NCBI GenBank assembly: GCA_964478385.1
Contig: CAYZIE010000001.1
Location: forward strand, 1 to 51,784
Direction: 5' to 3'
From: an uncultured Gammaproteobacteria bacterium
GTDB taxonomy: Bacteria > Patescibacteriota > Patescibacteriia > UBA1558 > GWA2-36-10
Length of the DNA: 51,784 nucleotides
Shown here: in pieces, positions 2,574-49,666 of the stretch
Layout: every line of letters starts with the position of its first letter
How positions within the stretch are numbered: position 1 is the stretch's first letter
Made by a program: the position numbers and the translations under genes
The notes under the pieces: model-generated
The model's database searches: none
What the model was told of the DNA's origin: nothing
What the model saw: only the letters and a program-made list of their open reading frames with translations

Positions 2574-4277
2574 ATGTTTAATATGTATGAAAAAAATACT
2601 AAATTTCATTTAGGTGCTGTTGTTATAGTACTTTTAATTATAACTATAGCTTTGATTAATATTCAAACTAGAGCTCAGTGGATATCTCCTTCTGCTCCTC
2701 CTGGAGGAGAACAATTAGAAACCACTAATTTATTATTTAATCCATTGCAAGGTGATTTAGAGTTAAATAATTTTAAGATTTATCCTGGGCAAAGTCTTAC
2801 TAATGATCCTATTATAGACACTGCTTCTGATGCAGAATATGTTATATATGCAAAAGCTAGTAATGAAAATGATGATAGTATTGGTGTTTATGCTCAGGGT
2901 AATAAATATGGCATTTCTGCTAAGAGTAGTAATTATTCAGGGTATTTTGAGGGTAATGTAGAGATAGTTGGTGATTTAAATATACAAGGTAATTTATCAT
3001 CAACTGGAGATTCTGATTTTTTTGTTAATTTAGAAACATTAAATGTTTATGGTTCAGAAATAAATAGAGAAGAACAAGTTATATATCTTGATGCTGGCTG
3101 GAATAATGTTTCTTTTAATATTGATCCTTCTTCTGGTAATTGTGAAATGAATATAGAAGAAATGCTTTTACAAATATTTTATGATAGTGGTTTAATAGAT
3201 GATCTCAGTGATACATATGGACTATCAGAATACATTAGTATTGTGAAGGCAAGAAATTGGGTTTATATACCAGATAGTGAATATTCAATTAATGATTGGG
3301 AATGTGATAAAGGTTATAAATTTGGAATGTGGAAACCAGCTAAAATTACTATACAAGGAACTAAAATAGATACAGGAAAAATTATTAGTCTACCATCAGG
3401 GTGGTCGTGGATTCCATATCTTCCACAAATATCATTGCCAATTGAAGTAGCGTTAGTTGATATTATTAATGATATTACCATTGTTAAAACTAATAAAAAT
3501 GGTGAAGAGTATGGATGGAGTCCAGGGTGTAGTATTGGTTCAGAAAATTGTAATTTATTTAATATGGAACCAGGCCTTATGTATAGTATAGCTGTAGATA
3601 ATAATGTAGAGTTACAATATACCATTGATACATACTCCCTATCTGTTGGTGATGGTATTTCTACTTTCAGTAATGATGTTGATATATCTAATAGTTTGAA
3701 TGTTGGTGTTGGTGGTATTAATTCTGAAGGTGATATTTATAGTGATAATATATTTGTAAATGGTATATACAGTAATGGTGATATTCAAGTTTTATCATAT
3801 AATTTAGATGAATATGAAAATACTATTTATGGTGTATCACACGATAGTTCTTCTGGCCATTTATTAAAATTACAAAGTGCTGAATATGCTTATTCCGATG
3901 ATTATATACCTATATATAATTATTATGATAAGTTTACAGTAGATATATATGGTAATACTACAATGCAGGGAGACTTAGAATTACATGGTAAAACAACAGG
4001 GTTACAATTGGATGTTATAGGTGTTGATGGTAATCTAGTAGTTTGTAATGAAGAAAATCTTGGTTCAATCATTGTTAAAGAATATATAAACAATCCGACT
4101 TTTAATACTACAGGAATGAAATTACAAATTTGTATGAAAAAATTTAGTGTTAATTATGGTATTCCACCAACAATATGTTCTTCTGAAACAGTGTATTCTT
4201 GGGAAATAATTACAGAATATATGGGAAGTAGTAATTATGAAAACTGTAATCCTGAAGGTGTTCTACCTAATGAATAA
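2574..4277 (+). CDS. Large secreted/surface protein of unknown function with N-terminal signal anchor
   Basis: 567 aa. Hydrophobic segment LGAVVIVLLIITIALINI, Gly/Asn/Asp-rich repetitive segments at both ends, and several Cys in the C-terminal part. No family recognised. Confidence 0.6.
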   Translation: MFNMYEKNTKFHLGAVVIVLLIITIALINIQTRAQWISPSAPPGGEQLETTNLLFNPLQGDLELNNFKIYPGQSLTNDPIIDTASDAEYVIYAKASNENDDSIGVYAQGNKYGISAKSSNYSGYFEGNVEIVGDLNIQGNLSSTGDSDFFVNLETLNVYGSEINREEQVIYLDAGWNNVSFNIDPSSGNCEMNIEEMLLQIFYDSGLIDDLSDTYGLSEYISIVKARNWVYIPDSEYSINDWECDKGYKFGMWKPAKITIQGTKIDTGKIISLPSGWSWIPYLPQISLPIEVALVDIINDITIVKTNKNGEEYGWSPGCSIGSENCNLFNMEPGLMYSIAVDNNVELQYTIDTYSLSVGDGISTFSNDVDISNSLNVGVGGINSEGDIYSDNIFVNGIYSNGDIQVLSYNLDEYENTIYGVSHDSSSGHLLKLQSAEYAYSDDYIPIYNYYDKFTVDIYGNTTMQGDLELHGKTTGLQLDVIGVDGNLVVCNEENLGSIIVKEYINNPTFNTTGMKLQICMKKFSVNYGIPPTICSSETVYSWEIITEYMGSSNYENCNPEGVLPNE

Positions 4278-5137: not shown

Positions 5138-6195
5138 TACTCTTTACTTTGTTTTTTTAACTCTTTTTCTAATTCTGTAATCAATGGTAATAATTCACCA
5201 TCCATTATCTTAGGCAAACCATGTAAACTTAATTTTATTCTATGATCAGTTATTCTATCTTGAGGATAATTGTATGTTCTAATTTTTTCACTTCTATCTC
5301 CTGTGCCTATTTGAGTTTTTCTTTCTTCTGCTAATTCTTTATGTTTTTCTTCTTCCATTTTAGCTAATACTCTAGATCTAAGTATTTGCACAGCTTTTAA
5401 CTTATTCTGTCCTTGTGATTTTTCATCTTGGCAAGATACAACTATATTAGTTGGTAAATGAGTTATTCTAACAGCAGAATATGTAGTATTAACTGATTGT
5501 CCTCCATGACCTGAAGCACAGAAAGTATCTATTCTTAAATCTTTATTATCTATTTCTAAATCTATTTCTTCTGCTTCTGGCATTACTGCTACACTAGCCG
5601 CTGAAGTATGTACTCTACCTGATTTTTCTGTTTCTGGTACTCTTTGTACTCTATGTACGCCACTTTCAAATTTAAAATACTTATATACATTTTCTCCTGT
5701 TACTTCAGCAATTATTTCTTTAAATCCACCTATTTCTGTTTTATTACTAGACAATATATTTATTTTAAAGTTCATAGTTTCTGCAAATCTTGAGTACATT
5801 CTGAATAGATTAGCTGCAAATAGAGCAGATTCTTCACCACCTGTACCAGCTCGTATTTCTAAGATTATATCTTTACTATCATTAGGATCTTGAGGATGAA
5901 GTATTTCTTCTAGCTTATTTTCATCTTCTTTTATTTTATCTTCTAAAACTTGTATTTCTTCATTTGTTAATACAATCATTTCTTGATCTTGTTCTTGTGC
6001 TAATGAAGCTTTTAATTTATTACTTTCTTCTGTATTTTTTTCTATATCTTCTACTAATTCTAGAGTATCTTTAGCAATATTATATTCCTTACTAATTTTA
6101 CTCATTTTTTTACTATTAGAAACAGTATCTGGATTTTGCATTTCTTTTTCCAGACTTTGTATTTTTTCTTTTAATTTTTCTTTTTCTTTTTTCAT
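5137..6195 (-). CDS. prfA: Peptide chain release factor 1
   Basis: 352 aa. GGQ motif (SGHGGQSVNTT) and RF1-type PxT tripeptide (RVQRVPETE). Confidence 0.93.
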   Translation of the reverse strand: MKKEKEKLKEKIQSLEKEMQNPDTVSNSKKMSKISKEYNIAKDTLELVEDIEKNTEESNKLKASLAQEQDQEMIVLTNEEIQVLEDKIKEDENKLEEILHPQDPNDSKDIILEIRAGTGGEESALFAANLFRMYSRFAETMNFKINILSSNKTEIGGFKEIIAEVTGENVYKYFKFESGVHRVQRVPETEKSGRVHTSAASVAVMPEAEEIDLEIDNKDLRIDTFCASGHGGQSVNTTYSAVRITHLPTNIVVSCQDEKSQGQNKLKAVQILRSRVLAKMEEEKHKELAEERKTQIGTGDRSEKIRTYNYPQDRITDHRIKLSLHGLPKIMDGELLPLITELEKELKKQSKE

Positions 6196-8364: not shown

Positions 8365-9066
8365 ATGGAAAAAAGAATATTATTAAAATTATCTGGACAA
8401 GTTTTAGAATCTGGTGATCAAGAAGCTAATTTAGATTTTGCTAAAATTGAAAAATTAGCTATTAATTTAAAAAAGATAAGTAAAGCTAAATGTCAATTAG
8501 GTATAGTTGTTGGTGCTGGTAATATATTTAGAGCTCGTATGGTTAAGGGTATGGAAATAGATAGAGTAGCGGCAGATCATATGGGCATGATGGCTACAAT
8601 TATTAATGCATTAGCATTACAATCTGTTTTAGAAAAGATGGGTCAAGAAGCTAGGGTATTATCTTCTTTTTCTTTACCTAGTGTAACTGAAGACTATTCA
8701 TATACAAATGCAATTAATCATTTAGAGAATAATAGAATAGTTATATTCGCAGGTGGTACTGGTAATCCATATTTTACTACTGATACCACTGCTATACTCA
8801 GAGCTTTGGAAATAAAAGCATCAAGAGTATTAAAAGCTACTCAGGTTGATGGAGTATATAGTGATGATCCTAAGAAAGATAAAAATGCTAAATTATATAA
8901 AACATTAAGTTATGATGAAGCTTTAGAAAAAGATTTACAAATAATGGATTCTACTGCTTTTGCTTTAGCGCAAGATAATAATTTACCATTATCTGTATTT
9001 AAATATAGTCCTGAAAATATAGTTAAAGCTGCTTTAAAGAATAATATTGGTACAAAAGTTAAATGA
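8365..9066 (+). CDS. pyrH: UMP kinase
   Basis: ILLKLSGQVL, VVGAGNIFRA and MGMMATIINALAL motifs. The TGA stop overlaps the next ATG (ATGA). Confidence 0.93.
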   Translation: MEKRILLKLSGQVLESGDQEANLDFAKIEKLAINLKKISKAKCQLGIVVGAGNIFRARMVKGMEIDRVAADHMGMMATIINALALQSVLEKMGQEARVLSSFSLPSVTEDYSYTNAINHLENNRIVIFAGGTGNPYFTTDTTAILRALEIKASRVLKATQVDGVYSDDPKKDKNAKLYKTLSYDEALEKDLQIMDSTAFALAQDNNLPLSVFKYSPENIVKAALKNNIGTKVK

Positions 9067-21798: not shown

Positions 21799-23349
21799 AT
21801 GAATAATATACCATTAGTTTTAATTATTTTAGATGGTTGGGGGATAAGCAAGGAAAGTAAGGGTAATGCTATATTCTTAGCTAAAACTCCTGTAGTTGAT
21901 AATATATGTAAAAAGTATTCTCATACTCATTTGCACGCTTCTGGCCATTATGTTGGTTTACCAGATGGACAACCAGGTAATTCTGAAGCTGGTCATATGA
22001 ATATTGGTGCTGGTAGAGTAATCCCTCAAGATTCTATTATAATAAACAAAAGTATTAAGAATAGTACTTTTTTTAAGAATCCAGCTTTTTTACAAACAGC
22101 ACAACATATTACTGATAATAATTCGGATATTCATTTAATGGGATTATTATCAGAAAATCAAAGTCCTCATTCAGATAATGATCATATAGTAGCTTTAATT
22201 GATTTTTTTACTAATAATAGTAAACAAAATATCTATCTTCATTTATTTACAGATGGTCGTGATAGTCCTATGTTTTCAGCTTTAAAAACTTTAGATAAGT
22301 ATAAAAAAGTTTTTGATAATAAAAGAGTTAAGATAGCTAGTATAATGGGTCGTTTCTATGCTATGGACAGAAAAAGAGATTGGCAAAGAACTAAATTAAC
22401 TTATGAAGCTATGACAGAAGGAAAGGGAGTAACAGTTACTAATGGTATAGAAGCTGTTAATCAAGCATACAACAGGGGAGAGAGTGATGAATTTATACTA
22501 CCAACAGTTATAGTTGATAAGAATAAAAAACCAATTGGTCCAATAAATGATAATGATGCTATAGTATTCTTTAATTTAAGATCGGATAGAGCTAGACAAT
22601 TGAGTAAAACTTTTGTACAGAAAAATTTTGAAAAAGATAATAAAGATTCTTTTAAAAGAAAAAAGAAAGTTAAAAATTTATTCTTTACTGCTTTAACTGA
22701 TTTTGGCACAGACTTAGGTCATATTTTAACAGCTTATCCAGCTATAGATATACCAGAATCTTTAACTTCTTGTTTAAAAGAATATAGACAATTATATATT
22801 GCTGAATCAGAAAAGTATTCTCATGTTACTTATTTCTTTAACGGGGGTTATGATCAACCAGTAGTAAAAGAAGAAAGAATATCTATTCCTTCTAAAAATA
22901 TTAGTACTTATGATCAAAAACCAAGTATGAGTGTTAAATTAGTTACTAATAAAGTAATTAAAGCTATACAAGATAAAAAATTTGATTTTATAACCCTAAA
23001 CTATGCTAGTCCTGATATGATAGGTCATACTGGTAATATTGAAGCAGCTATTAAAGCTATTGAAATAGTAGATAAAGAAATTGGTAAAATTATTTCTGAA
23101 GTATCTAAAAGAAATGGTACTGTTATAATAACAGCTGATCATGGAAATGTTGAAGAAATGATTAATAATGAAACAGGAGAAGTTATTACAAAACACTCTA
23201 CTAATTTAGTCCCTTTTGCTATAATAAATAAACATAAATATAAATTAGGAAAAATAGGTAAACTAGCTGATATAGCTCCAACTATATTAGATATTCTAGA
23301 TATAAAAAAGCCTAAATCAATGACAGGTAAATCTTTAATTAAAAAATAA
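21799..23349 (+). CDS. gpmI: 2,3-bisphosphoglycerate-independent phosphoglycerate mutase, paralogue 1
   Basis: LDGWG, GNSEAGH (catalytic Ser), DGRD, RFYAMDRKRDW, EKYSHVTYFFNGG, PDMIGHTG and TADHGN. The usual SDGGVHS segment is replaced by SENQSPHS. Confidence 0.85.
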   Translation: MNNIPLVLIILDGWGISKESKGNAIFLAKTPVVDNICKKYSHTHLHASGHYVGLPDGQPGNSEAGHMNIGAGRVIPQDSIIINKSIKNSTFFKNPAFLQTAQHITDNNSDIHLMGLLSENQSPHSDNDHIVALIDFFTNNSKQNIYLHLFTDGRDSPMFSALKTLDKYKKVFDNKRVKIASIMGRFYAMDRKRDWQRTKLTYEAMTEGKGVTVTNGIEAVNQAYNRGESDEFILPTVIVDKNKKPIGPINDNDAIVFFNLRSDRARQLSKTFVQKNFEKDNKDSFKRKKKVKNLFFTALTDFGTDLGHILTAYPAIDIPESLTSCLKEYRQLYIAESEKYSHVTYFFNGGYDQPVVKEERISIPSKNISTYDQKPSMSVKLVTNKVIKAIQDKKFDFITLNYASPDMIGHTGNIEAAIKAIEIVDKEIGKIISEVSKRNGTVIITADHGNVEEMINNETGEVITKHSTNLVPFAIINKHKYKLGKIGKLADIAPTILDILDIKKPKSMTGKSLIKK

Positions 23350-24927
23350 ATGAATAGACCTAAACCAGTTGTATTAATAGTATTAGATGGGTTTGGCATT
23401 GCTCCTTCTTCAAGAGCTAATGCTATTTCTTTGGCTAAAACACCAAACTTTGATAAATATGCTTCTAATTATCCTATTATGCCTTTATCAGCGAGTGGTG
23501 AAGCTGTTGGTTTACCATGGGGAGAAATGGGTAACTCTCAAGTTGGTCATCTTTCTTTAGGATCAGGATTAATACCATATCAATACTTACCTAGAATTAC
23601 TAAATCTATTATTGAAAAAGATTTTTTTAAGAATGAAGCATTATTAAAAGCATGTAATCATGTAAAAGAAAAAAATAGTGCTTTACATATTATTGGTTTA
23701 GTTAGTGATGGAGGCATTCATAGTTATAATGAACATTTATACTCAATATTAGAATTAGTTAAAAAAGAAAAAATAGAAAAAGTATATATTCATGCTTTTT
23801 TAGATGGTAGAGATACTATATACAATGGAGGATTAAAATATATTTCTAAATTACAAGATAAGATAAAGCAAATAGGCATTGGTAGTATAGCTAGTTTAGC
23901 TGGTCGTTTTTATGCTATGGATAGAGATCATAATTGGGATAGAACAGAATTAGCATACAATGCATTAATAAAAGGTGAGTCTAAGGAGAAGTATAAAGAT
24001 CCATTAAAAGCTGTACAAAAATCTTATGATAGTTCAGTATATGATGAACAATTATTACCTGTAGTTATTACTGATGATAATAATAATCCTAAAGGTATTA
24101 TACAAGATAATGATTCTGTTGTATTTTTTAATTTCAGAGCAGATAGAGCTAGACAATTAACAAAAGCATTGTCAGTACCTGGTTTTGAAAAGTTTGAACA
24201 AAAGTATTATAAAAACTTACTAATGGTTACTATGACAGAGTATGAAAAAGATTTACCTGTTACAGTAGCATTTAAACCACTATCAATAGAAGTTCCTTTA
24301 GCTAAAGTAATATCTGATGCTGGTTTAAAACAATTACATATTTCTGAAACTAATAAATATGCTCATGTTACTTATTTCTTTAATGGAGGAAAAGAAACTA
24401 TTTTTGAAGGAGAAGATAGGGTATTAGTGCCATCTCCTAGTATTCCTTCTTTTGATCAAAAACCAGCTATGTCTGCTCGTGAGACTACAGCTAAAACAAT
24501 TCAGTTTATAAAAGAAGGGTTATATGATTTTATAGTGATAAATTATGCTAATCCAGATATGGTTGGTCATACTGGTAATATTAAAGCTACTATTAAAGCT
24601 ATAGAAATACTTGATCAATTAGTAGGAGAATTAGTTGATACAACGCTATCTTATGACGGAGTTGTTTTAATTACAGCTGATCATGGAAATGCTGAAAAGA
24701 TGTATGATTTACAAACTGGAGTAATAGATAAAGAACATACTAATAATCCTGTTCCTTTATTTATAGTAGGGCAACAATTTGCTGGAAAAAGTGTTTTAAC
24801 AGGTGTGTCTGGTACTGATTTAAGTAATATTACTCCTTTTGGAGTTTTATCAGATGTAGCTCCAACTATTTTAAAAATAATTGGATTAAAAAAACCACCT
24901 AGTATGACTGGTAGTTCTTTGGTTTAA
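23350..24927 (+). CDS. gpmI: 2,3-bisphosphoglycerate-independent phosphoglycerate mutase, paralogue 2
   Basis: LDGFG, GNSQVGH, SDGGIHS, DGRD, RFYAMDRDHNW, NKYAHVTYFFNGG, PDMVGHTG and TADHGN. Confidence 0.9.
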   Translation: MNRPKPVVLIVLDGFGIAPSSRANAISLAKTPNFDKYASNYPIMPLSASGEAVGLPWGEMGNSQVGHLSLGSGLIPYQYLPRITKSIIEKDFFKNEALLKACNHVKEKNSALHIIGLVSDGGIHSYNEHLYSILELVKKEKIEKVYIHAFLDGRDTIYNGGLKYISKLQDKIKQIGIGSIASLAGRFYAMDRDHNWDRTELAYNALIKGESKEKYKDPLKAVQKSYDSSVYDEQLLPVVITDDNNNPKGIIQDNDSVVFFNFRADRARQLTKALSVPGFEKFEQKYYKNLLMVTMTEYEKDLPVTVAFKPLSIEVPLAKVISDAGLKQLHISETNKYAHVTYFFNGGKETIFEGEDRVLVPSPSIPSFDQKPAMSARETTAKTIQFIKEGLYDFIVINYANPDMVGHTGNIKATIKAIEILDQLVGELVDTTLSYDGVVLITADHGNAEKMYDLQTGVIDKEHTNNPVPLFIVGQQFAGKSVLTGVSGTDLSNITPFGVLSDVAPTILKIIGLKKPPSMTGSSLV

Positions 24928-36888: not shown

Positions 36889-36963
36889 GGCCCTATCGTC
36901 TAGTGGTTAGGACACCAGGTTCTCATCCTGGTAACCGGGGTTCGATTCCCCGTAGGGTCACCA
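36889..36963 (+). tRNA. tRNA-Glu (anticodon CTC), CCA encoded
   Basis: Hand-folded cloverleaf. Acceptor GGCCCTA/TAGGGTC, anticodon stem CCAGG/CCTGG with loop TTCTCAT, T arm CGGGG-TTCGATT-CCCCG. 75 nt. Confidence 0.95.
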
Positions 36964-43034: not shown

Positions 43035-43111
43035 TGGTACGCCCAGTAGGATTTGAACCTACGACCATCAGCTTAAAAGGCTGCTGCTCTACCAGGCTGA
43101 GCTATAGGCGC
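43035..43111 (-). tRNA. tRNA-Lys (anticodon TTT), CCA encoded
   Basis: The reverse complement folds as GCGCCTA-TA-GCTC-AGCCTGGTA-GAGC-A-GCAGC-CTTTTAA-GCTGA-TGGTC-GTAGG-TTCAAAT-CCTAC-TGGGCGT-A-CCA. 77 nt. Confidence 0.92.
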
Positions 43112-45004: not shown

Positions 45005-47674
45005 ATGAATAAAAATATTAATTGGCATACATTAAGTATACCCAAGGTATTAAAAAAATTAAATACTTCTAAAAAAGGTTTAAGTTTTGATCAAGTTGAG
45101 AAAAATCAAGATAAATATGGATTTAATATATTAGCTAAAGCTGATAAGTTTTCTATTTCTCGTTTAATACTATCTCAGTTTAAAAGTGCTTTGATATACA
45201 TTCTTTTAATTGCTGGATTGATTTCCATTTTCTTTAAAGAGTATGTAGATGCTTATGTAATATTTGCGGCTGTATTACTTAATGTTGTTGTTGGATTTAT
45301 ACAAGAGTTTAAAGCAAATAAATCTTTAGAAAAGTTAAATAAAGTTGTAAAAAAAGAAACTTTAGTTATACGTGAAGGACAAGAACAAAAAATAGAATCT
45401 AAATATTTAGTTCCTGGAGATATTATAGTATTAGAATCTGGTGATAGAATACCAGCTGATGCTAGAGTATTATCAATAAATGAATTAGAAGTTAATGAAG
45501 CTAGTTTAACAGGAGAATCTTGGCCTATTAAAAAAGAATTAGGAGTGATTGATGTTGGTACAGTATTAGCTGAAAGAAATAATATGGTATTTATGGGTAC
45601 TTTAGTTGTTGAGGGCAGAGGACAGGCTATAGTTACTAATACTGGTTACAAAACAGAAATGGGTAAGATTACTGTTATGTTAAAAGAAACTGAAGATGAA
45701 AGAACACCTTTGCAAGAAAAATTAGATATTTTTGCTAAGAATATAACTAAGGTTATACTAGTGGTTTCTTTAATTCTTTTTGCTTTAGGTGTTATGAAAG
45801 GTCATGAATGGTCAGAGATATTTATAATATCAGTTGCAGTAGCTGTATCAGCTATTCCTGAGGGTTTAGTTATAGGTATGACTATGATATTAACTGTTGG
45901 TATGCAAAGAATACTTAAAAGTAATGGTTTGGTTCGTAAATTAATTTCTGCTGAAACATTAGGATCTACTACTGTTATTTGCACTGATAAAACAGGAACA
46001 TTAACAGAGGGTGAAATGAGAGTTACTCAAATAGTATCTGCTAGTCAACAAGTAGATTTAAGTGGTAAGTCTTTTAAAGATATTAAAATAGGTAAAGAGT
46101 TAAAAAGATTATTACAAGTATCATTATTGTGTAATGATGCTGTTATTGAAAATCCTAAGGATAATAAAGATGAGTGGAGGATAATAGGTAGTCCTACAGA
46201 AAAAGCTTTACTATTATTTGGTACTTCTGGTTTAGATATTACTAAAGAATTTCATCATTTTGAAAGAAAAGATGAAATACCATTTGATTCTCAAAGAAAA
46301 TATATGATTAGTCGTCATAAATATGATGATACTCATGATATTATTTTATTAAAAGGTGCTCCAGAAAGAGTTATTTCTTTTTCTTCTAAGTATTTACAAG
46401 ATTCTAAGGATATTAAATTAACTAAAACTAAAATAGATTATTTTAGATCTGAATGGGAAAGATTAAGTAAACAAGGTTTAAGAGTTTTAGCAGGTGGTTA
46501 TAAACTAATACCAAAGAAAACTAAAGATATTGGTACTTATAGAGAAGATCCTGAAGAGTTTACATTTGTAGGTGTATGGGGGTTATCTGATCCTTTAAGA
46601 CCAGAAACTATAGATACATTGCATGAAACATTTAAAGCAGGTATTAACACTGTTATTATAACCGGAGATAATAAGTTTACTACTCAAAGAATAGCTGAAG
46701 ATCTTGGATTGTCTGTTAGTAAAAAAGATATTATTACTGGAGATGAATTATTAAAAATGAGTGATAAGGAATTAGAAGAAAAAATAAGGAGTATTAAAAT
46801 ATATGCTAGAGTAAGTCCTGCTGATAAGTTAAGGATTATAAAAGCATGGCAAGATCAAGGAGAGATTGTATCTATGACAGGTGATGGAGTTAATGACGCT
46901 CCTGCTTTAAAAGCTGCAGATATTGGTGTAGCTGTTAGTAGTGGATCAGATGTAGCTAAAGAAACAGCTGATTTAGTTTTATTAGATAATAATTTTAAAA
47001 CTATAGTCATGGCTATACGTCAGGGTAGAGTAATATTTGCTAATATTAAAAAAGTTATACTCTACTTACTATCTGATAGTTTTTCTGAGATTCTAATAAT
47101 AACTGGAAGTATATTATTAGGTGTTCCATTACCATTAGTTACTGCTCAGATTCTTTGGATTAATTTAGTTAGTGATGGTTTTCCTTCTTTAGCTTTAACT
47201 ATGGAGCCTGAAGAAGAGGGTATAATGGTAAAGAAGGTGGATAAAATAAAATCTATCTTTAACTTTGAAAGTAAGTTTTTAGTTGTCGTTATATCTTTAG
47301 TAACAAGTATTACTAGTTTAGGTTTATTCTATTATTTTTGGAAAACAACAGGGGATATAGTTTTAGCAAGAACAGTTACATTTACAACATTGGGTATTGA
47401 TACATTATTCTATGTATTTAGTATTAAAGCTTTAGATAAAAATATATTTAAATCTAAACCTTTTAGAAATAAATATTTAAATATTGCTGTTATTCTTGGT
47501 TTTTTAATTCAACTCTTAGCTATATATACACCTTTCTTAAATAAAATGTTAAGAACAATTCCTTTACATTGGTCTGAATGGAAGATAATGATATTAGTAA
47601 TGTTATTAGTATTTGTGTTAATAGAAACAATTAAAGGTATATTTATACACTATCGTAAAGATAACTATGTTTAA
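45005..47674 (+). CDS. P2-type cation-transporting ATPase (Ca2+/PacL-like)
   Basis: 889 aa. TGES, CTDKTGTLT phosphorylation motif, TGDN, MTGDGVNDAPALK, and about 10 TM segments. Confidence 0.9.
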   Translation: MNKNINWHTLSIPKVLKKLNTSKKGLSFDQVEKNQDKYGFNILAKADKFSISRLILSQFKSALIYILLIAGLISIFFKEYVDAYVIFAAVLLNVVVGFIQEFKANKSLEKLNKVVKKETLVIREGQEQKIESKYLVPGDIIVLESGDRIPADARVLSINELEVNEASLTGESWPIKKELGVIDVGTVLAERNNMVFMGTLVVEGRGQAIVTNTGYKTEMGKITVMLKETEDERTPLQEKLDIFAKNITKVILVVSLILFALGVMKGHEWSEIFIISVAVAVSAIPEGLVIGMTMILTVGMQRILKSNGLVRKLISAETLGSTTVICTDKTGTLTEGEMRVTQIVSASQQVDLSGKSFKDIKIGKELKRLLQVSLLCNDAVIENPKDNKDEWRIIGSPTEKALLLFGTSGLDITKEFHHFERKDEIPFDSQRKYMISRHKYDDTHDIILLKGAPERVISFSSKYLQDSKDIKLTKTKIDYFRSEWERLSKQGLRVLAGGYKLIPKKTKDIGTYREDPEEFTFVGVWGLSDPLRPETIDTLHETFKAGINTVIITGDNKFTTQRIAEDLGLSVSKKDIITGDELLKMSDKELEEKIRSIKIYARVSPADKLRIIKAWQDQGEIVSMTGDGVNDAPALKAADIGVAVSSGSDVAKETADLVLLDNNFKTIVMAIRQGRVIFANIKKVILYLLSDSFSEILIITGSILLGVPLPLVTAQILWINLVSDGFPSLALTMEPEEEGIMVKKVDKIKSIFNFESKFLVVVISLVTSITSLGLFYYFWKTTGDIVLARTVTFTTLGIDTLFYVFSIKALDKNIFKSKPFRNKYLNIAVILGFLIQLLAIYTPFLNKMLRTIPLHWSEWKIMILVMLLVFVLIETIKGIFIHYRKDNYV

Positions 47675-47702
47675 TTGACAAATACTGCATTTATGATATA
47701 AT
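47675..47702 (+). promoter_or_regulatory. Near-consensus promoter (TTGACA-16-TATAAT) immediately after the ATPase stop
   Basis: TTGACA at 47675-47680 and TATAAT at 47697-47702. An ATG follows 7 nt later. Confidence 0.65.
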
Positions 47703-47709
47703 AATATAT

Positions 47710-47757
47710 ATGAGATATATAAGATTAAATAATAATGATAATAATAACCGATTTTAA
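47710..47757 (+). CDS. Candidate leaderless 15-codon leader peptide MRYIRLNNNDNNNRF
   Basis: The ATG lies 7 nt after the -10 box, the same geometry as several leaderless genes in this window. Six of seven consecutive codons (47728-47748) are Asn. The TAA stop abuts the first ACCGGT element. Confidence 0.4.
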   Translation: MRYIRLNNNDNNNRF

Positions 47758-47815
47758 GACCGGTATCTTTTTGTATTTCATAAATGTTTAACCGGTCTAT
47801 AAAACCGGTTTTTTT
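47757..47815 (+). promoter_or_regulatory. Alternative-helix attenuator: three ACCGGT elements giving an 8-bp antiterminator or a 7-bp terminator plus U-run
   Basis: AGACCGGT (47757-47764) is the exact complement of ACCGGTCT (47791-47798). AACCGGT (47790-47796) is the exact complement of ACCGGTT (47804-47810), which is followed by T5 (47811-47815). The two helices share 47791-47796. Confidence 0.5.
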
Positions 47816-47820
47816 AATAT

Positions 47821-47895
47821 TCCGGGGTAGTTGAGTGGTACAACGCCACGCTGTTAACGTGGATATCGCAGGTTCGAGTCCTGCCCCCGGAGCCA
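47821..47895 (+). tRNA. tRNA-Asn (anticodon GTT), CCA encoded
   Basis: Acceptor TCCGGGG/CCCCGGA, D arm GTTG-AGTGGTA-CAAC, anticodon arm CCACG-CTGTTAA-CGTGG, T arm GCAGG-TTCGAGT-CCTGC, discriminator G, then CCA. 75 nt. Confidence 0.95.
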
Positions 47896-47917
47896 AATTG
47901 TATGTTATAATAGTAAA

Positions 47918-49666
47918 ATGAAAAGTTTAACAAAACAAACATTTAAGATTTTTTGGAAACACTTATTAGAATATAAGTGGTCTGTTTTATTTACACTTAT
48001 ATCTATAACAATAGGCGTTGTATGTAATATATTGGCTCCTTTATTGTATAAAGATTTTTTTGATATTTTAGTTGAATCAGGAGATGTAATACTTTTAAAG
48101 AGTGTATTGTATAAAGTATTAATAATTTTTGTTATTTCTTGGGTATTTTGGCGTACTTCTAATTTTACTACAGCATATTTTCAAACACATATCATGGCTG
48201 ATTTATCTAATTATTGTTTTGCTTACCTACATAAACATTCAGTTAATTTTTTTAATAATAATTTTGTAGGAGCATTGGTCAAAAAAGTAAATAGATTTGC
48301 TAGATCTTTTGAAGGTGTTGTAGATGGTATTATATGGGATTTTTTACCTATTACAATTAATATTGGTTTGATAATAATTATTTTAAGTAGTCGTAATTTA
48401 TGGTTAGGTTTAAGTATTTTGATTTGGGTTATTATATACATTATAATTAATTATTATTTTAGTTTATATAAACTAAAATATGATGTTAAAAGAACTGAAT
48501 TAAATTCTAAAGTAACAGGAGTATTGGCTGATACTATAACCAACCAATTAAATGTTAAATTATTTACTGGATATGATAGAGAAAATATATTATTTCAAAA
48601 AATAAATGGTCAATTACAAAAATTAAGGATATTTACTTGGAATTTATCAAATCATTTTAATTCTTTTCAAGCCCTTTTAATGATTATTTTAGAGATTGGA
48701 ATAATGTTTTATGCCGTTACATTATGGCAAAAAGGAAGTATTACAGTTGGTGATTTTGTTTTAATTCAAACATATCTTTCTATTATAATTATGAGGTTGT
48801 GGAATTTTGGTCGTATAATACGAAATTATTATGAAAATATGGCAGAAGCTTATGAAATGACAGAGATACTAGAAAGACCTCATGGTATTAAAGATAGTAA
48901 AAGTGCTAAATCACTTAAAGTAGAAAAAGGAGAAATTGAATTTAAGAATGTTAATTTTGCATACAATAGAACAAACAAGGTAATTAGTAACTTTAATTTA
49001 AAAATTGAATCTAAAGAAAAAATAGGTATTATAGGTCCTTCTGGATCAGGTAAATCAACTTTAATTAATCTATTATTAAGAAATTATGATTTAGATCATG
49101 GTAAGATAAAAATAGACAGTCAAAAGATATCTAGCATTACTCAGGAAAGTTTATGGAAAAATATATCTTTAGTAAATCAAGACTCAATACTTTTTCATAG
49201 AACTTTAAAGGATAATATTAAGTATGGTAAACTAAATGCTACTGATAAAGAAGTATATCAAGCAAGTAAGCTAGCTAATGCTCATAAATTTATAATTAAT
49301 TTTCCTGAAGAATATAATACATATGTAGGTGAAAGAGGTGTTAAACTATCTGGTGGTGAAAGGCAAAGAGTGACTATAGCTAGAGCTATATTAAAGAATT
49401 CTCCAATATTAGTTTTAGATGAAGCTACTTCTAGTTTAGATTCAGTTTCAGAAGAGTTGATACAAGATGCTTTATATAATTTGATGAAAGATAAAACAGT
49501 TATTGTAATAGCTCATAGATTATCTACTATTATGAAAATGGATAGAATTGTAGTTATAGATAAAGGAAAAATAGTAGAGCAAGGAAATCATCAAGAGTTG
49601 ATAAAGAAAAAAGGTGGCTTATATAAAAAGTTATGGGAAAAACAAGTAGGTGGATTTGTCATTTAA
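47918..49666 (+). CDS. ABC exporter, fused permease/ATPase (MsbA-like)
   Basis: 582 aa with 6 N-terminal TM segments. Walker A GPSGSGKST, signature LSGGERQR, Walker B ILVLDEATS. Confidence 0.9.
   Translation: MKSLTKQTFKIFWKHLLEYKWSVLFTLISITIGVVCNILAPLLYKDFFDILVESGDVILLKSVLYKVLIIFVISWVFWRTSNFTTAYFQTHIMADLSNYCFAYLHKHSVNFFNNNFVGALVKKVNRFARSFEGVVDGIIWDFLPITINIGLIIIILSSRNLWLGLSILIWVIIYIIINYYFSLYKLKYDVKRTELNSKVTGVLADTITNQLNVKLFTGYDRENILFQKINGQLQKLRIFTWNLSNHFNSFQALLMIILEIGIMFYAVTLWQKGSITVGDFVLIQTYLSIIIMRLWNFGRIIRNYYENMAEAYEMTEILERPHGIKDSKSAKSLKVEKGEIEFKNVNFAYNRTNKVISNFNLKIESKEKIGIIGPSGSGKSTLINLLLRNYDLDHGKIKIDSQKISSITQESLWKNISLVNQDSILFHRTLKDNIKYGKLNATDKEVYQASKLANAHKFIINFPEEYNTYVGERGVKLSGGERQRVTIARAILKNSPILVLDEATSSLDSVSEELIQDALYNLMKDKTVIVIAHRLSTIMKMDRIVVIDKGKIVEQGNHQELIKKKGGLYKKLWEKQVGGFVI

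Follow-up and report, generated by a model that had tools for sequence, protein, structure and literature searches.

The window analyzed here is a stretch of 51,784 nucleotides (nt) from contig CAYZIE010000001.1 (assembly GCA_964478385.1), titled as an uncultured Gammaproteobacteria bacterium and placed by GTDB in the Patescibacteriota; its G+C content is 26.4%, and all coordinates refer to its full length. On its forward strand, a gene for an asparagine tRNA (tRNA-Asn; anticodon GTT, CCA encoded) at 47821-47895 is preceded by a short leader with a promoter, a small open reading frame (ORF) rich in asparagine (Asn) codons and two alternative helices, and this leader and the tRNA gene behind it are the subject of the analysis. 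The promoter consists of a -35 hexamer TTGACA (47675-47680) and, after a 16-nt spacer, a TG-extended -10 element TGATATAAT (47694-47702), of which TATAAT occupies 47697-47702. With a match of 12/12, it is the best promoter-like site between 46500 and 49000. Seven nt 3' of the -10 element, an ATG at 47710 opens an ORF of 15 codons, MRYIRLNNNDNNNRF* (47710-47757), which ends in a TAA stop codon (UAA in the transcript) at 47755-47757. Judged by the promoter spacing, transcription is predicted to start at A47710 or 1 nt earlier, and this spacing leaves no room for a Shine-Dalgarno site in the leader. The putative sensor tract of the ORF, AAT AAT AAT GAT AAT AAT AAC (47728-47748), specifies Asn at six of seven codons, and 47728 is the only position in the six frames of the window at which at least six of seven codons do so. 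A first-pass annotation of this DNA had described the promoter, the ATG, the ORF, three complementary elements named A, B and C and the tRNA gene, and all of them are present where it had placed them. It had put the end of the terminal U-run 6 nt before the tRNA gene, a distance that has to be corrected to 5 nt (AATAT), since the T-run ends at 47815.

From the last Asn codon onward, the leader contains four short segments that can pair with each other. Segment 1 (AACCG, 47746-47750) shares bases with the last Asn codon and would be covered by a ribosome that reads the final Asn codons; its possible partners are the CGGTT of segment 4 and, as a weak one, segment 2. Segment 2, which is element A AGACCGGT (47757-47764), starts 11-12 nt past the first base of the last Asn codon, ends 9 nt past the first base of the stop codon and represents the 5' strand of the putative antiterminator. 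It is followed by a run of five T (47768-47772) that mirrors the T-run of the terminator and may serve as a pause site. Segment 3 is element B ACCGGTCT (47791-47798) and forms, together with the overlapping AACCGGT (47790-47796), the sequence AACCGGTCT (47790-47798). It is common to both helices, pairing with segment 2 in an antiterminator of 8 base pairs (bp; -10.4 kcal/mol) and with segment 4 in a terminator of 7 bp (-8.0 kcal/mol). Segment 4, element C ACCGGTT (47804-47810), is the 3' arm of this terminator and merges into a tract of seven T (47809-47815), the first two of which lie within the stem. Besides the B:C hairpin with its T-run, the 2.5 kb around it contain only one other terminator-like site.

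With both strands of the window counted, the hexamer ACCGGT occurs only three times, all within 52 nt; 0.68 copies are expected in the window. At least three copies anywhere in the window were found in 5 of 100 shuffles, and the chance of such clustering is about 1e-6 to 1e-5, an estimate worked from the expected count and not computed with a tool. The clustering is thus unlikely to be accidental, as the first-pass annotation had held, although its figure of about 29% G+C does not match the window. As AACCG at 47746-47750 complements the CGGTT of element C, TAACCGATTTTAAGACCGGT is nearly the reverse complement of ACCGGTCTATAAAACCGGTT, and the leader region is also an imperfect inverted repeat of 19-20 nt.

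Related loci were collected with two exact matches to the tRNA: a 24-nt match to its 5' part gave 24 loci in a species-representative genome collection, and a 19-nt match to its D-arm in metagenomes added 93 stretches. After filtering for the GTT anticodon and at least 150 nt of upstream sequence and after removing duplicates, 81 distinct tRNA-Asn loci of Patescibacteria with a G+C content of 26-51% remained. Informative record titles among the 24 loci of the genome collection name Patescibacteria, Parcubacteria, Magasanikbacteria and Komeilibacteria, the last two of which are separate candidate phyla of the Parcubacteria group in the NCBI lineages; many other records bear the title 'uncultured Gammaproteobacteria bacterium', clearly a generic label. 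A common layout of sigma-70 promoter, leaderless ATG, Asn-rich ORF, hairpin with T-run and tRNA-Asn is found in 56 of the 81 loci. The ORFs of these 56 leaders, which span a G+C range of 0.26-0.51, start with ATG, are mostly 13-28 codons long and contain at least three, usually five to seven, Asn codons in a window of seven. Under strict criteria, a hairpin with a T-run lies between ORF and tRNA in 51 of the 56. In the other 25 loci, tRNA-Asn has a consensus promoter at a distance of 10-25 nt, is part of a tRNA cluster or lies directly behind a coding gene. The presence of the leader tracks the type of tRNA, as seen in the acceptor arms of leader-bearing and leader-free loci (TCCGGGG, 36 versus 3; TGCCGGG, 6 versus 0; TCCGCGG, 0 versus 7), which fits inheritance within lineages.

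The promoter scores at least 9/12 in 44 of the 56 leaders, mostly with a perfect TTGACA, and its -10 element ends 4-9 nt before the ATG, or 6-9 nt in all but two cases. This spacing would place the start site on the AUG or within 2-3 nt of it and leaves no room for a Shine-Dalgarno site in these 44 leaders. In a test that was blind to ORFs, the best promoter of each locus was picked without regard to reading frames, and the next 27 codons were counted. An ATG follows 4-12 nt after the -10 element at 38 of the 50 promoters located at least 80 nt from the tRNA, compared to none of the 18 tRNA-proximal promoters. The ATG frame contains 227 AAY codons versus 53 and 33 in the other two, and it is the frame richest in AAY in 36 of 37 loci (p = 1.7e-16). 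The leaders contain 34% Asn, compared to 5.0% in the long ORFs that accompany them, and this enrichment remains at a G+C content of at least 0.40. The first-pass annotation had proposed conservation of the mini-ORF frame as a check on its reading, and both the frequency of the layout and the frame count are in line with it. For other tRNAs in the same loci, neither a cognate-rich nor an Asn-rich mini-ORF was found in any of the 38 upstream regions, which is a small sample. Outside the Asn run, the peptide is not conserved, with endings such as RF, RL, SPESGM, PSI, PLVRG and SGLA, as would be expected of a sensor more than of a peptide with a function of its own. A preference for AAT over AAC as a device to raise sensitivity was considered as well and is not seen, the AAT fraction being 0.73 in the leaders and 0.80 in the ORFs.

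A possible objection is that B:C is simply the terminator of the upstream gene, a point that the first-pass annotation had itself raised, and that the Asn ORF is an accidental AAT-rich stretch in DNA of 26% G+C. The gene in question encodes a P-type ATPase (45005-47674), has no terminator of its own and ends with its stop codon 1 nt from the leader promoter; in the related loci, the gap to an upstream neighbor on the same strand is at most 60 nt in 23 of 37 cases. However, the promoter lies between the ATPase gene and B:C, and the layout recurs beside unrelated neighbors, as the 92 flanking ORFs fall into 64 clusters and eight upstream neighbors are on the opposite strand. It is also found in loci with up to 49-51% G+C, with a conserved frame, ATG and promoter spacing, and the leader-bearing loci comprise 39 distinct tRNA sequences and 29 distinct terminator-arm cores, so they are not artefact copies of a single sequence. 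In addition, only 46 ATG-started mini-ORFs with at least five Asn in seven codons exist on both strands of the 578,640 bp scanned, and 45 of them lie at most 260 nt upstream of tRNA-Asn and on its strand. An accidental origin of the layout is accordingly very improbable. The ATPase gene without a terminator and the tight upstream packing nevertheless indicate that the hairpin probably also ends read-through from upstream. If it ends such untranslated transcripts, this would explain why termination is kept in the state without a ribosome.

The arms of the terminator vary widely in sequence (AACCGGT, ACCCGCC, GCCCAC, AACTCTCC, GACCCTCC, AGACCAGTCC, AATTCAGCT and ATCCCGAC among them), while their complementarity is kept. 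In a structure-blind MAFFT alignment of 48 leaders (A1), 79.8% of the terminator cells are paired, and 56 cells have changes on both sides, compared to 17.8 in shuffles (0/500 shuffles). A covariance model (R1) built with the terminator as its only structure gives one significant match per leader-bearing locus, always upstream of tRNA-Asn, and the remaining matches (E > 0.05) are noise; in the window, its single match spans 47740-47815 with 65.8 bits and E of about 1e-7. In the structural alignment, 91.2% of the terminator cells are paired, with 76 double-sided changes versus 18.1 in shuffles. The antiterminator helix A:B was not used in making either alignment. It is paired in 68-72% of the cells versus 59-62% in shuffles, its double-change cells number 44-47 versus about 22 (0/500), and its covariation score is 0.34-0.37, compared to 0.21 in shuffles and at most 0.20 with the partner slid. 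Furthermore, the region after the Asn codons pairs with the terminator 5' arm of its own locus at -15.4 kcal/mol and with the arms of other loci at -9.0 kcal/mol (z = -13, 0/5000 permutations), a result that also stands with 29 representatives, each with a distinct terminator arm. As a rule, the antiterminator reaches outside the terminator stem: on average, 5.1 pairs of the 2:3 helix lie upstream of the stem, at least three pairs lie outside the stem in 48 of 51 loci, and the complementarity of these flanks alone is locus-specific (z = -5.0). A run of at least four T follows segment 2 in 35 of 51 loci, and in many relatives it pairs with an A-rich tract before segment 3, which extends the antiterminator further. 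For segment 1, complementarity within a locus also exceeds that across loci, with z = -6.1 for 1:4 and z = -4.5 for 1:2.

These data also bear on whether the repeated hexamer acts as DNA. Three or four palindromic ACCGGT copies, spaced by 13, 32 and 13 nt and present nowhere else in the window, could form the operator of a protein that represses or activates tRNA-Asn transcription. The elements, however, lie downstream of the promoter and inside the transcript, and other lineages replace ACCGGT by unrelated sequences and keep only the complementarity, which is the signature of RNA pairing and not of a conserved DNA site; we regard an operator as highly unlikely. The long inverted repeat was likewise considered as the end of a mobile element or as an integration scar, and this was rejected because only complementarity is conserved across lineages and because the repeat always lies between the promoter-positioned ORF and the tRNA.

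A different question is whether a ribosome is involved in the choice between the helices. Uncharged tRNA-Asn, in the manner of a T-box, or a protein could read the AAU/AAC run directly, or a tandem duplication of the terminator could have created a spurious 2:3 helix. Leaders that sense tRNA exist in the form of T-boxes, and segment 2 with its T-run does resemble segment 4 with its T-run, with segment 1 complementary to both. But in a scan with Rfam 15, only tRNA matches pass the gathering score, and sub-threshold matches such as rseX (25 bits at a cut-off of 50) are noise. The T-box family (RF00230) has no match at its gathering threshold and none when E values of up to 10 are admitted, and the leader is only about 110 nt long. 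Moreover, a ribosome-free sensor would need neither the shared frame of the Asn tract and a promoter-positioned ATG nor a stop codon no more than about 15 nt away from the end of segment 2. A duplication leaves the extension of the 2:3 helix beyond the stem and its locus-specific flanks unexplained, and the 1:2 region is weak, with a mean minimum free energy of -4.0 kcal/mol versus -11.7 kcal/mol for the terminator. A switch without a ribosome, or a duplicated terminator, is therefore an unlikely explanation of the leader.

The regulated gene in the proposed attenuator would be tRNA-Asn itself, since it is the only gene between the hairpin and the next terminator or promoter. Downstream of the tRNA, a terminator (at least 9 of 53 loci under strict criteria) or the promoter of the next gene follows. 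In the window, it is a promoter, as the ABC-transporter gene behind tRNA-Asn has its own leaderless promoter with an extended -10 element TGTTATAAT and, after 6 nt, the ATG at 47918 (47903-47920, forward strand). This arrangement would have to be read differently if the leader promoter, the mini-ORF and B:C were a separate gene for a small RNA or peptide and tRNA-Asn were transcribed from a promoter of its own, for example the weak TATAAA at 47798-47803, which sits in the loop of the window's terminator. Once terminated, the leader would persist as a stable RNA of about 105 nt, and trans-acting attenuator RNAs and leader peptides are known from other bacteria (PMC7968998, PMC7298713). A separate tRNA promoter was sought, and none was found. 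In the window, the best tRNA-proximal site scores 5/12. The score of this site does not exceed 8/12 in 38 of 40 leader-bearing loci, whereas it is at least 9/12 in 17 of 25 leader-free loci. The T-run ends just 4-13 nt before the tRNA in most loci, the terminator loops vary (CAAAAC, GAAA, CGGT and others) without a conserved -10 element, and the lack of peptide conservation outside the Asn run also speaks against a peptide gene. Two separate units at this place are improbable on these grounds. The first-pass annotation had proposed to look for a promoter between terminator and tRNA, for preserved A:B and B:C complementarity and for a role of B:C beyond the ATPase transcript, and its reading agrees with the outcome on all three points.

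The spacing of ORF and segments is of the kind that ribosome-mediated attenuation calls for. Counted from the first base of the last Asn codon, segment 2 of the related loci starts at a median of 12 nt (10th-90th percentile 8-14); counted from the first base of the stop codon, it ends at a median of 11 nt (4-15). The region shielded by a bacterial ribosome reaches roughly 12 nt past the first base in its A site. With this footprint, a ribosome stalled on the Asn run would expose segment 2, and a ribosome at the stop codon would hide it. Constrained folding of the window gives the corresponding states: with a ribosome on the Asn codons up to 47740, A:B forms (-13.2 kcal/mol, including a small loop hairpin), and with a ribosome at the stop codon, no fold is found until C emerges, after which B:C forms (-8.5 kcal/mol). 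Without a ribosome, the structure of minimum free energy (-21.4 kcal/mol) is a nested arrangement of 1:4 and 2:3 that abuts the U-tract.

Taken together, sequence comparison makes it likely that the leader is a leader-peptide attenuator of the ribosome-mediated type, which controls transcription of the cognate tRNA-Asn gene. According to the proposed mechanism, the sole promoter for tRNA-Asn (47675-47702) would start the transcript at or next to A47710, and the leaderless 15-codon ORF would be translated from an AUG at its very 5' end. When Asn-tRNA(Asn) is plentiful, the ribosome would reach the UAA at 47755-47757 and cover segment 2, so that segments 3 and 4 would form B:C before the U-tract and transcription would stop 5 nt short of the tRNA. 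When Asn-tRNA(Asn) is scarce, the ribosome would stall on the Asn codons with its front edge about 12 nt past the A-site codon, covering segment 1 and freeing segment 2, which would pair with segment 3 as soon as this is made. Segment 4 would then be left without a partner, no hairpin would form at the U-tract, and RNA polymerase would read into tRNA-Asn; the leader of roughly 110 nt would be removed by RNase P. A leader that is not translated, for example one arising by read-through from the ATPase gene, would fold into 1:4 and 2:3, or into 3:4, and the helix at the U-tract should terminate it. The net effect would be a negative feedback of the charged tRNA on the transcription of its own gene. 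Compared to the first-pass annotation, which had proposed the A, B and C helices and stalling on the Asn codons, the spacing, the alternative helices and the conservation support its attenuator reading, and the model is refined by a fourth segment inside the end of the ORF, by the longer antiterminator and by the probable second role of the terminator for upstream transcripts. Such feedback of charged tRNA-Asn on tRNA-Asn synthesis through a leaderless ORF of its own codons is probably conserved across a large part of the Parcubacteria/Patescibacteria radiation.

Several points weigh against this interpretation. Segment 1, the least secure element of the model, is weak, as is its 1:2 helix (mean z = -0.73). 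If the A site is on the very last Asn codon, the edge of the ribosome (about 47758) clips 2 nt of segment 2, and the clipped A:B helix (6 bp, -8.4 kcal/mol) is isoenergetic with B:C (-8.5 kcal/mol) in the window, so that read-through would depend on kinetics or on a ribosome halted at one of the earlier Asn codons. The element is absent from the 25 leader-free loci. Extra tRNA relieves a lack of asparagine only if the tRNA itself or tRNA-dependent Asn synthesis is limiting, and the model offers no reason why Asn alone should be regulated in this way. Regarding the statistics, the loci are kin to each other, so the comparisons with shuffles overstate their independence, and since the loci were gathered by an exact match to the D-arm of the window's tRNA, the taxonomic breadth seen here is that of this sample.

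The window is an unremarkable piece of chromosome that carries housekeeping genes. Pfam scans of the long ORFs in the window identified L25, RF1, S2, EF-Ts, GAPDH, CysRS, PGK, enolase, PBP, a Mur ligase and DnaB, as well as ArgRS, the P-type ATPase and an ABC exporter; AsnRS, GatCAB and Asn synthetase were not found among these ORFs. TATAAT lies 6-8 nt before an ATG, often as TGnTATAAT and without a Shine-Dalgarno site, at 2574, 12902, 45005, 47918 and, on the reverse strand, 11015, which bears out the earlier remark that the leader shares its spacing with other leaderless genes of this DNA. Other genes have GGAGG Shine-Dalgarno sites (12291 and, on the reverse strand, 38503 and 42930). The organism thus appears to mix leaderless and Shine-Dalgarno-led initiation, with leaderless genes being common. 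Two further tRNA genes have other surroundings: tRNA-Lys (43035-43111, reverse strand) has a consensus promoter TTGACA-17-TATAAT 15 nt upstream, the distance that the first-pass annotation had given, and a terminator after the gene, and tRNA-Glu(CTC) (36889-36963) has no recognizable promoter in the approximately 25 nt after the preceding ORF and is followed by the next ORF after 6 nt. Two full-length genes for cofactor-independent phosphoglycerate mutase (iPGM_N and Metalloenzyme domains) stand in tandem at 21799-23349 and 23350-24927, after PGK and enolase.

Some of the related loci deviate in ways that concern the surroundings of the tRNA. Between 40 and 185 extra nt lie between terminator and tRNA in L049, L048, L007, L013, L035, L064, L087 and L053, with two direct repeats of about 80 nt in the extra stretch of L049; the element thus tolerates insertions 3' of the terminator. 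In L109, approximately 80 extra nt lie between ORF and terminator, and the terminator is only 7 nt from the tRNA. In L006 (tRNA match at 5884-5907, reverse strand), L031 (approximately 3000-3018) and L092 (downstream of the tRNA match at 8365-8383), the tRNA-Asn behind the attenuator breaks off after approximately the first 33 nt, at CTG of the anticodon loop, and gives way to a GC-rich linker of 16-21 nt and a second, complete and different tRNA-Asn (TCTGGGGTAGTTTAATGGTAAAACGC...). This arrangement looks like the scar of an integration or gene replacement at a tRNA gene. Directly 3' of tRNA-Asn, L001, L012 and L048 have a common trailer AATTGTATGTT and then a GC-rich stretch CGGCGTTTGTTGCCTCGGCGCAAAGCGCCTCGGCACGCGCCCTGCGGGC, which is identical in L001 and L012 although these loci have a G+C content of only 29-39%; the stretch may represent an insertion beside the tRNA, either of a mobile element or of a structured RNA. 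Finally, L014 (DATION010000001.1) is titled Candidatus Udaeobacter (Verrucomicrobiota) but has a tRNA-Asn typical of the Candidate Phyla Radiation (CPR) and an Asn leader, and it is probably a mis-binned contig.

If the proposed mechanism is true, it would be the first case known of a leader-peptide attenuator with an RNA gene as its target, and attenuation would extend beyond protein operons. The cell would gauge one charged tRNA with its own ribosomes and adjust the transcription of that tRNA, using a compact and portable sensor that could easily be tested. It would also mean that leaderless translation couples to transcription tightly enough for attenuation in organisms that cannot be cultured. 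For the physiology of CPR bacteria, this would raise the questions of why asparagine was chosen, by which route Asn-tRNA is synthesized and which control takes its place in lineages that do not have the element. In minimal genomes, such an attenuator may replace other controls of tRNA supply, or it may link the supply of tRNA-Asn to tRNA-dependent asparagine synthesis.

Bacterial tRNA genes are generally held to be controlled at their promoters, through growth rate and the stringent response, and by processing and decay. No feedback that is specific to one tRNA and acts on its single gene is known to us, and none turned up in Rfam 15 or in searches of full-text literature, whose coverage largely leaves out subscription journals; a leader-peptide attenuator on a tRNA gene was also not found described in that literature. 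A known sensor of tRNA charging is the T-box, which binds uncharged tRNA through a specifier codon and a conserved T-box sequence, works without ribosomes and is 200-300 nt long. Asn-specific T-boxes control asnS or tRNA-dependent Asn synthesis in Firmicutes, reportedly including a case in Clostridium acetobutylicum, and to our knowledge no T-box controls a tRNA gene. The leader described here resembles T-boxes in that a decision between terminator and antiterminator would report the charging state of one tRNA, and it differs from them in that stem I with its specifier loop and the features of the T-box sequence are not present.

The classical leader-peptide attenuators are those of Escherichia coli, namely trpL, hisL, pheL, thrL, leuL and ilvL. 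Yanofsky-model attenuators of amino-acid operons are summarized in PMC4007540. As in the trpL, hisL and pheL class, a short ORF rich in the sensed codons is combined with an intrinsic terminator just before the regulated gene, the antiterminator uses the 5' arm of the terminator, the spacing suits a ribosome that is stalled or at the stop codon, and a fourth segment lies upstream. The structural features of the class are present, with the exception of segment 1, whose 1:2 helix is weak. In the window, segment 1 takes part in the nested 1:4 and 2:3 arrangement, and a strong 1:2 hairpin as in the classical attenuators is missing. The leader further differs from these systems in its leaderless ORF, with the AUG at the 5' end and without a Shine-Dalgarno site, in its host, which belongs to the Patescibacteria, and in having no sequence or Rfam relationship to them. 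Above all, the target differs: it is the cognate tRNA gene, whereas the usual targets, which the mechanism as such does not demand, are protein genes for biosynthetic enzymes, transport or aminoacyl-tRNA synthetases.

Leaderless short ORFs with a sensory role have been described in mycobacteria, where polycysteine ORFs are ribosome-stalling sensors for downstream genes (Canestrari et al., bioRxiv 10.1101/834739). They share with the Asn leaders the leaderless start and the run of codons for one amino acid. The mycobacterial elements, however, work at the level of translation, where they free the sequestered ribosome-binding site of a protein gene, whereas here a terminator hairpin with a U-tract stands before an RNA gene.

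Leader-peptide control of synthetase genes, as in pheM-pheST, comes near to the proposed function, since the translation apparatus of one amino acid is regulated by ribosome stalling on its codons. In Deinococcus deserti, leaderless leader peptides have been predicted at synthetase genes (PMC4007540), and like the Asn ORFs they start at the 5' end of the transcript. While the synthetase leaders regulate the charging enzyme, the leader in front of tRNA-Asn would regulate the tRNA gene itself, so that the sensed molecule and the product would be the same species in a direct autoregulation. The comparison of these loci strongly suggests that a leaderless ORF regulates its cognate tRNA by leader-peptide attenuation, an arrangement that was not found described in the literature and the Rfam families searched.

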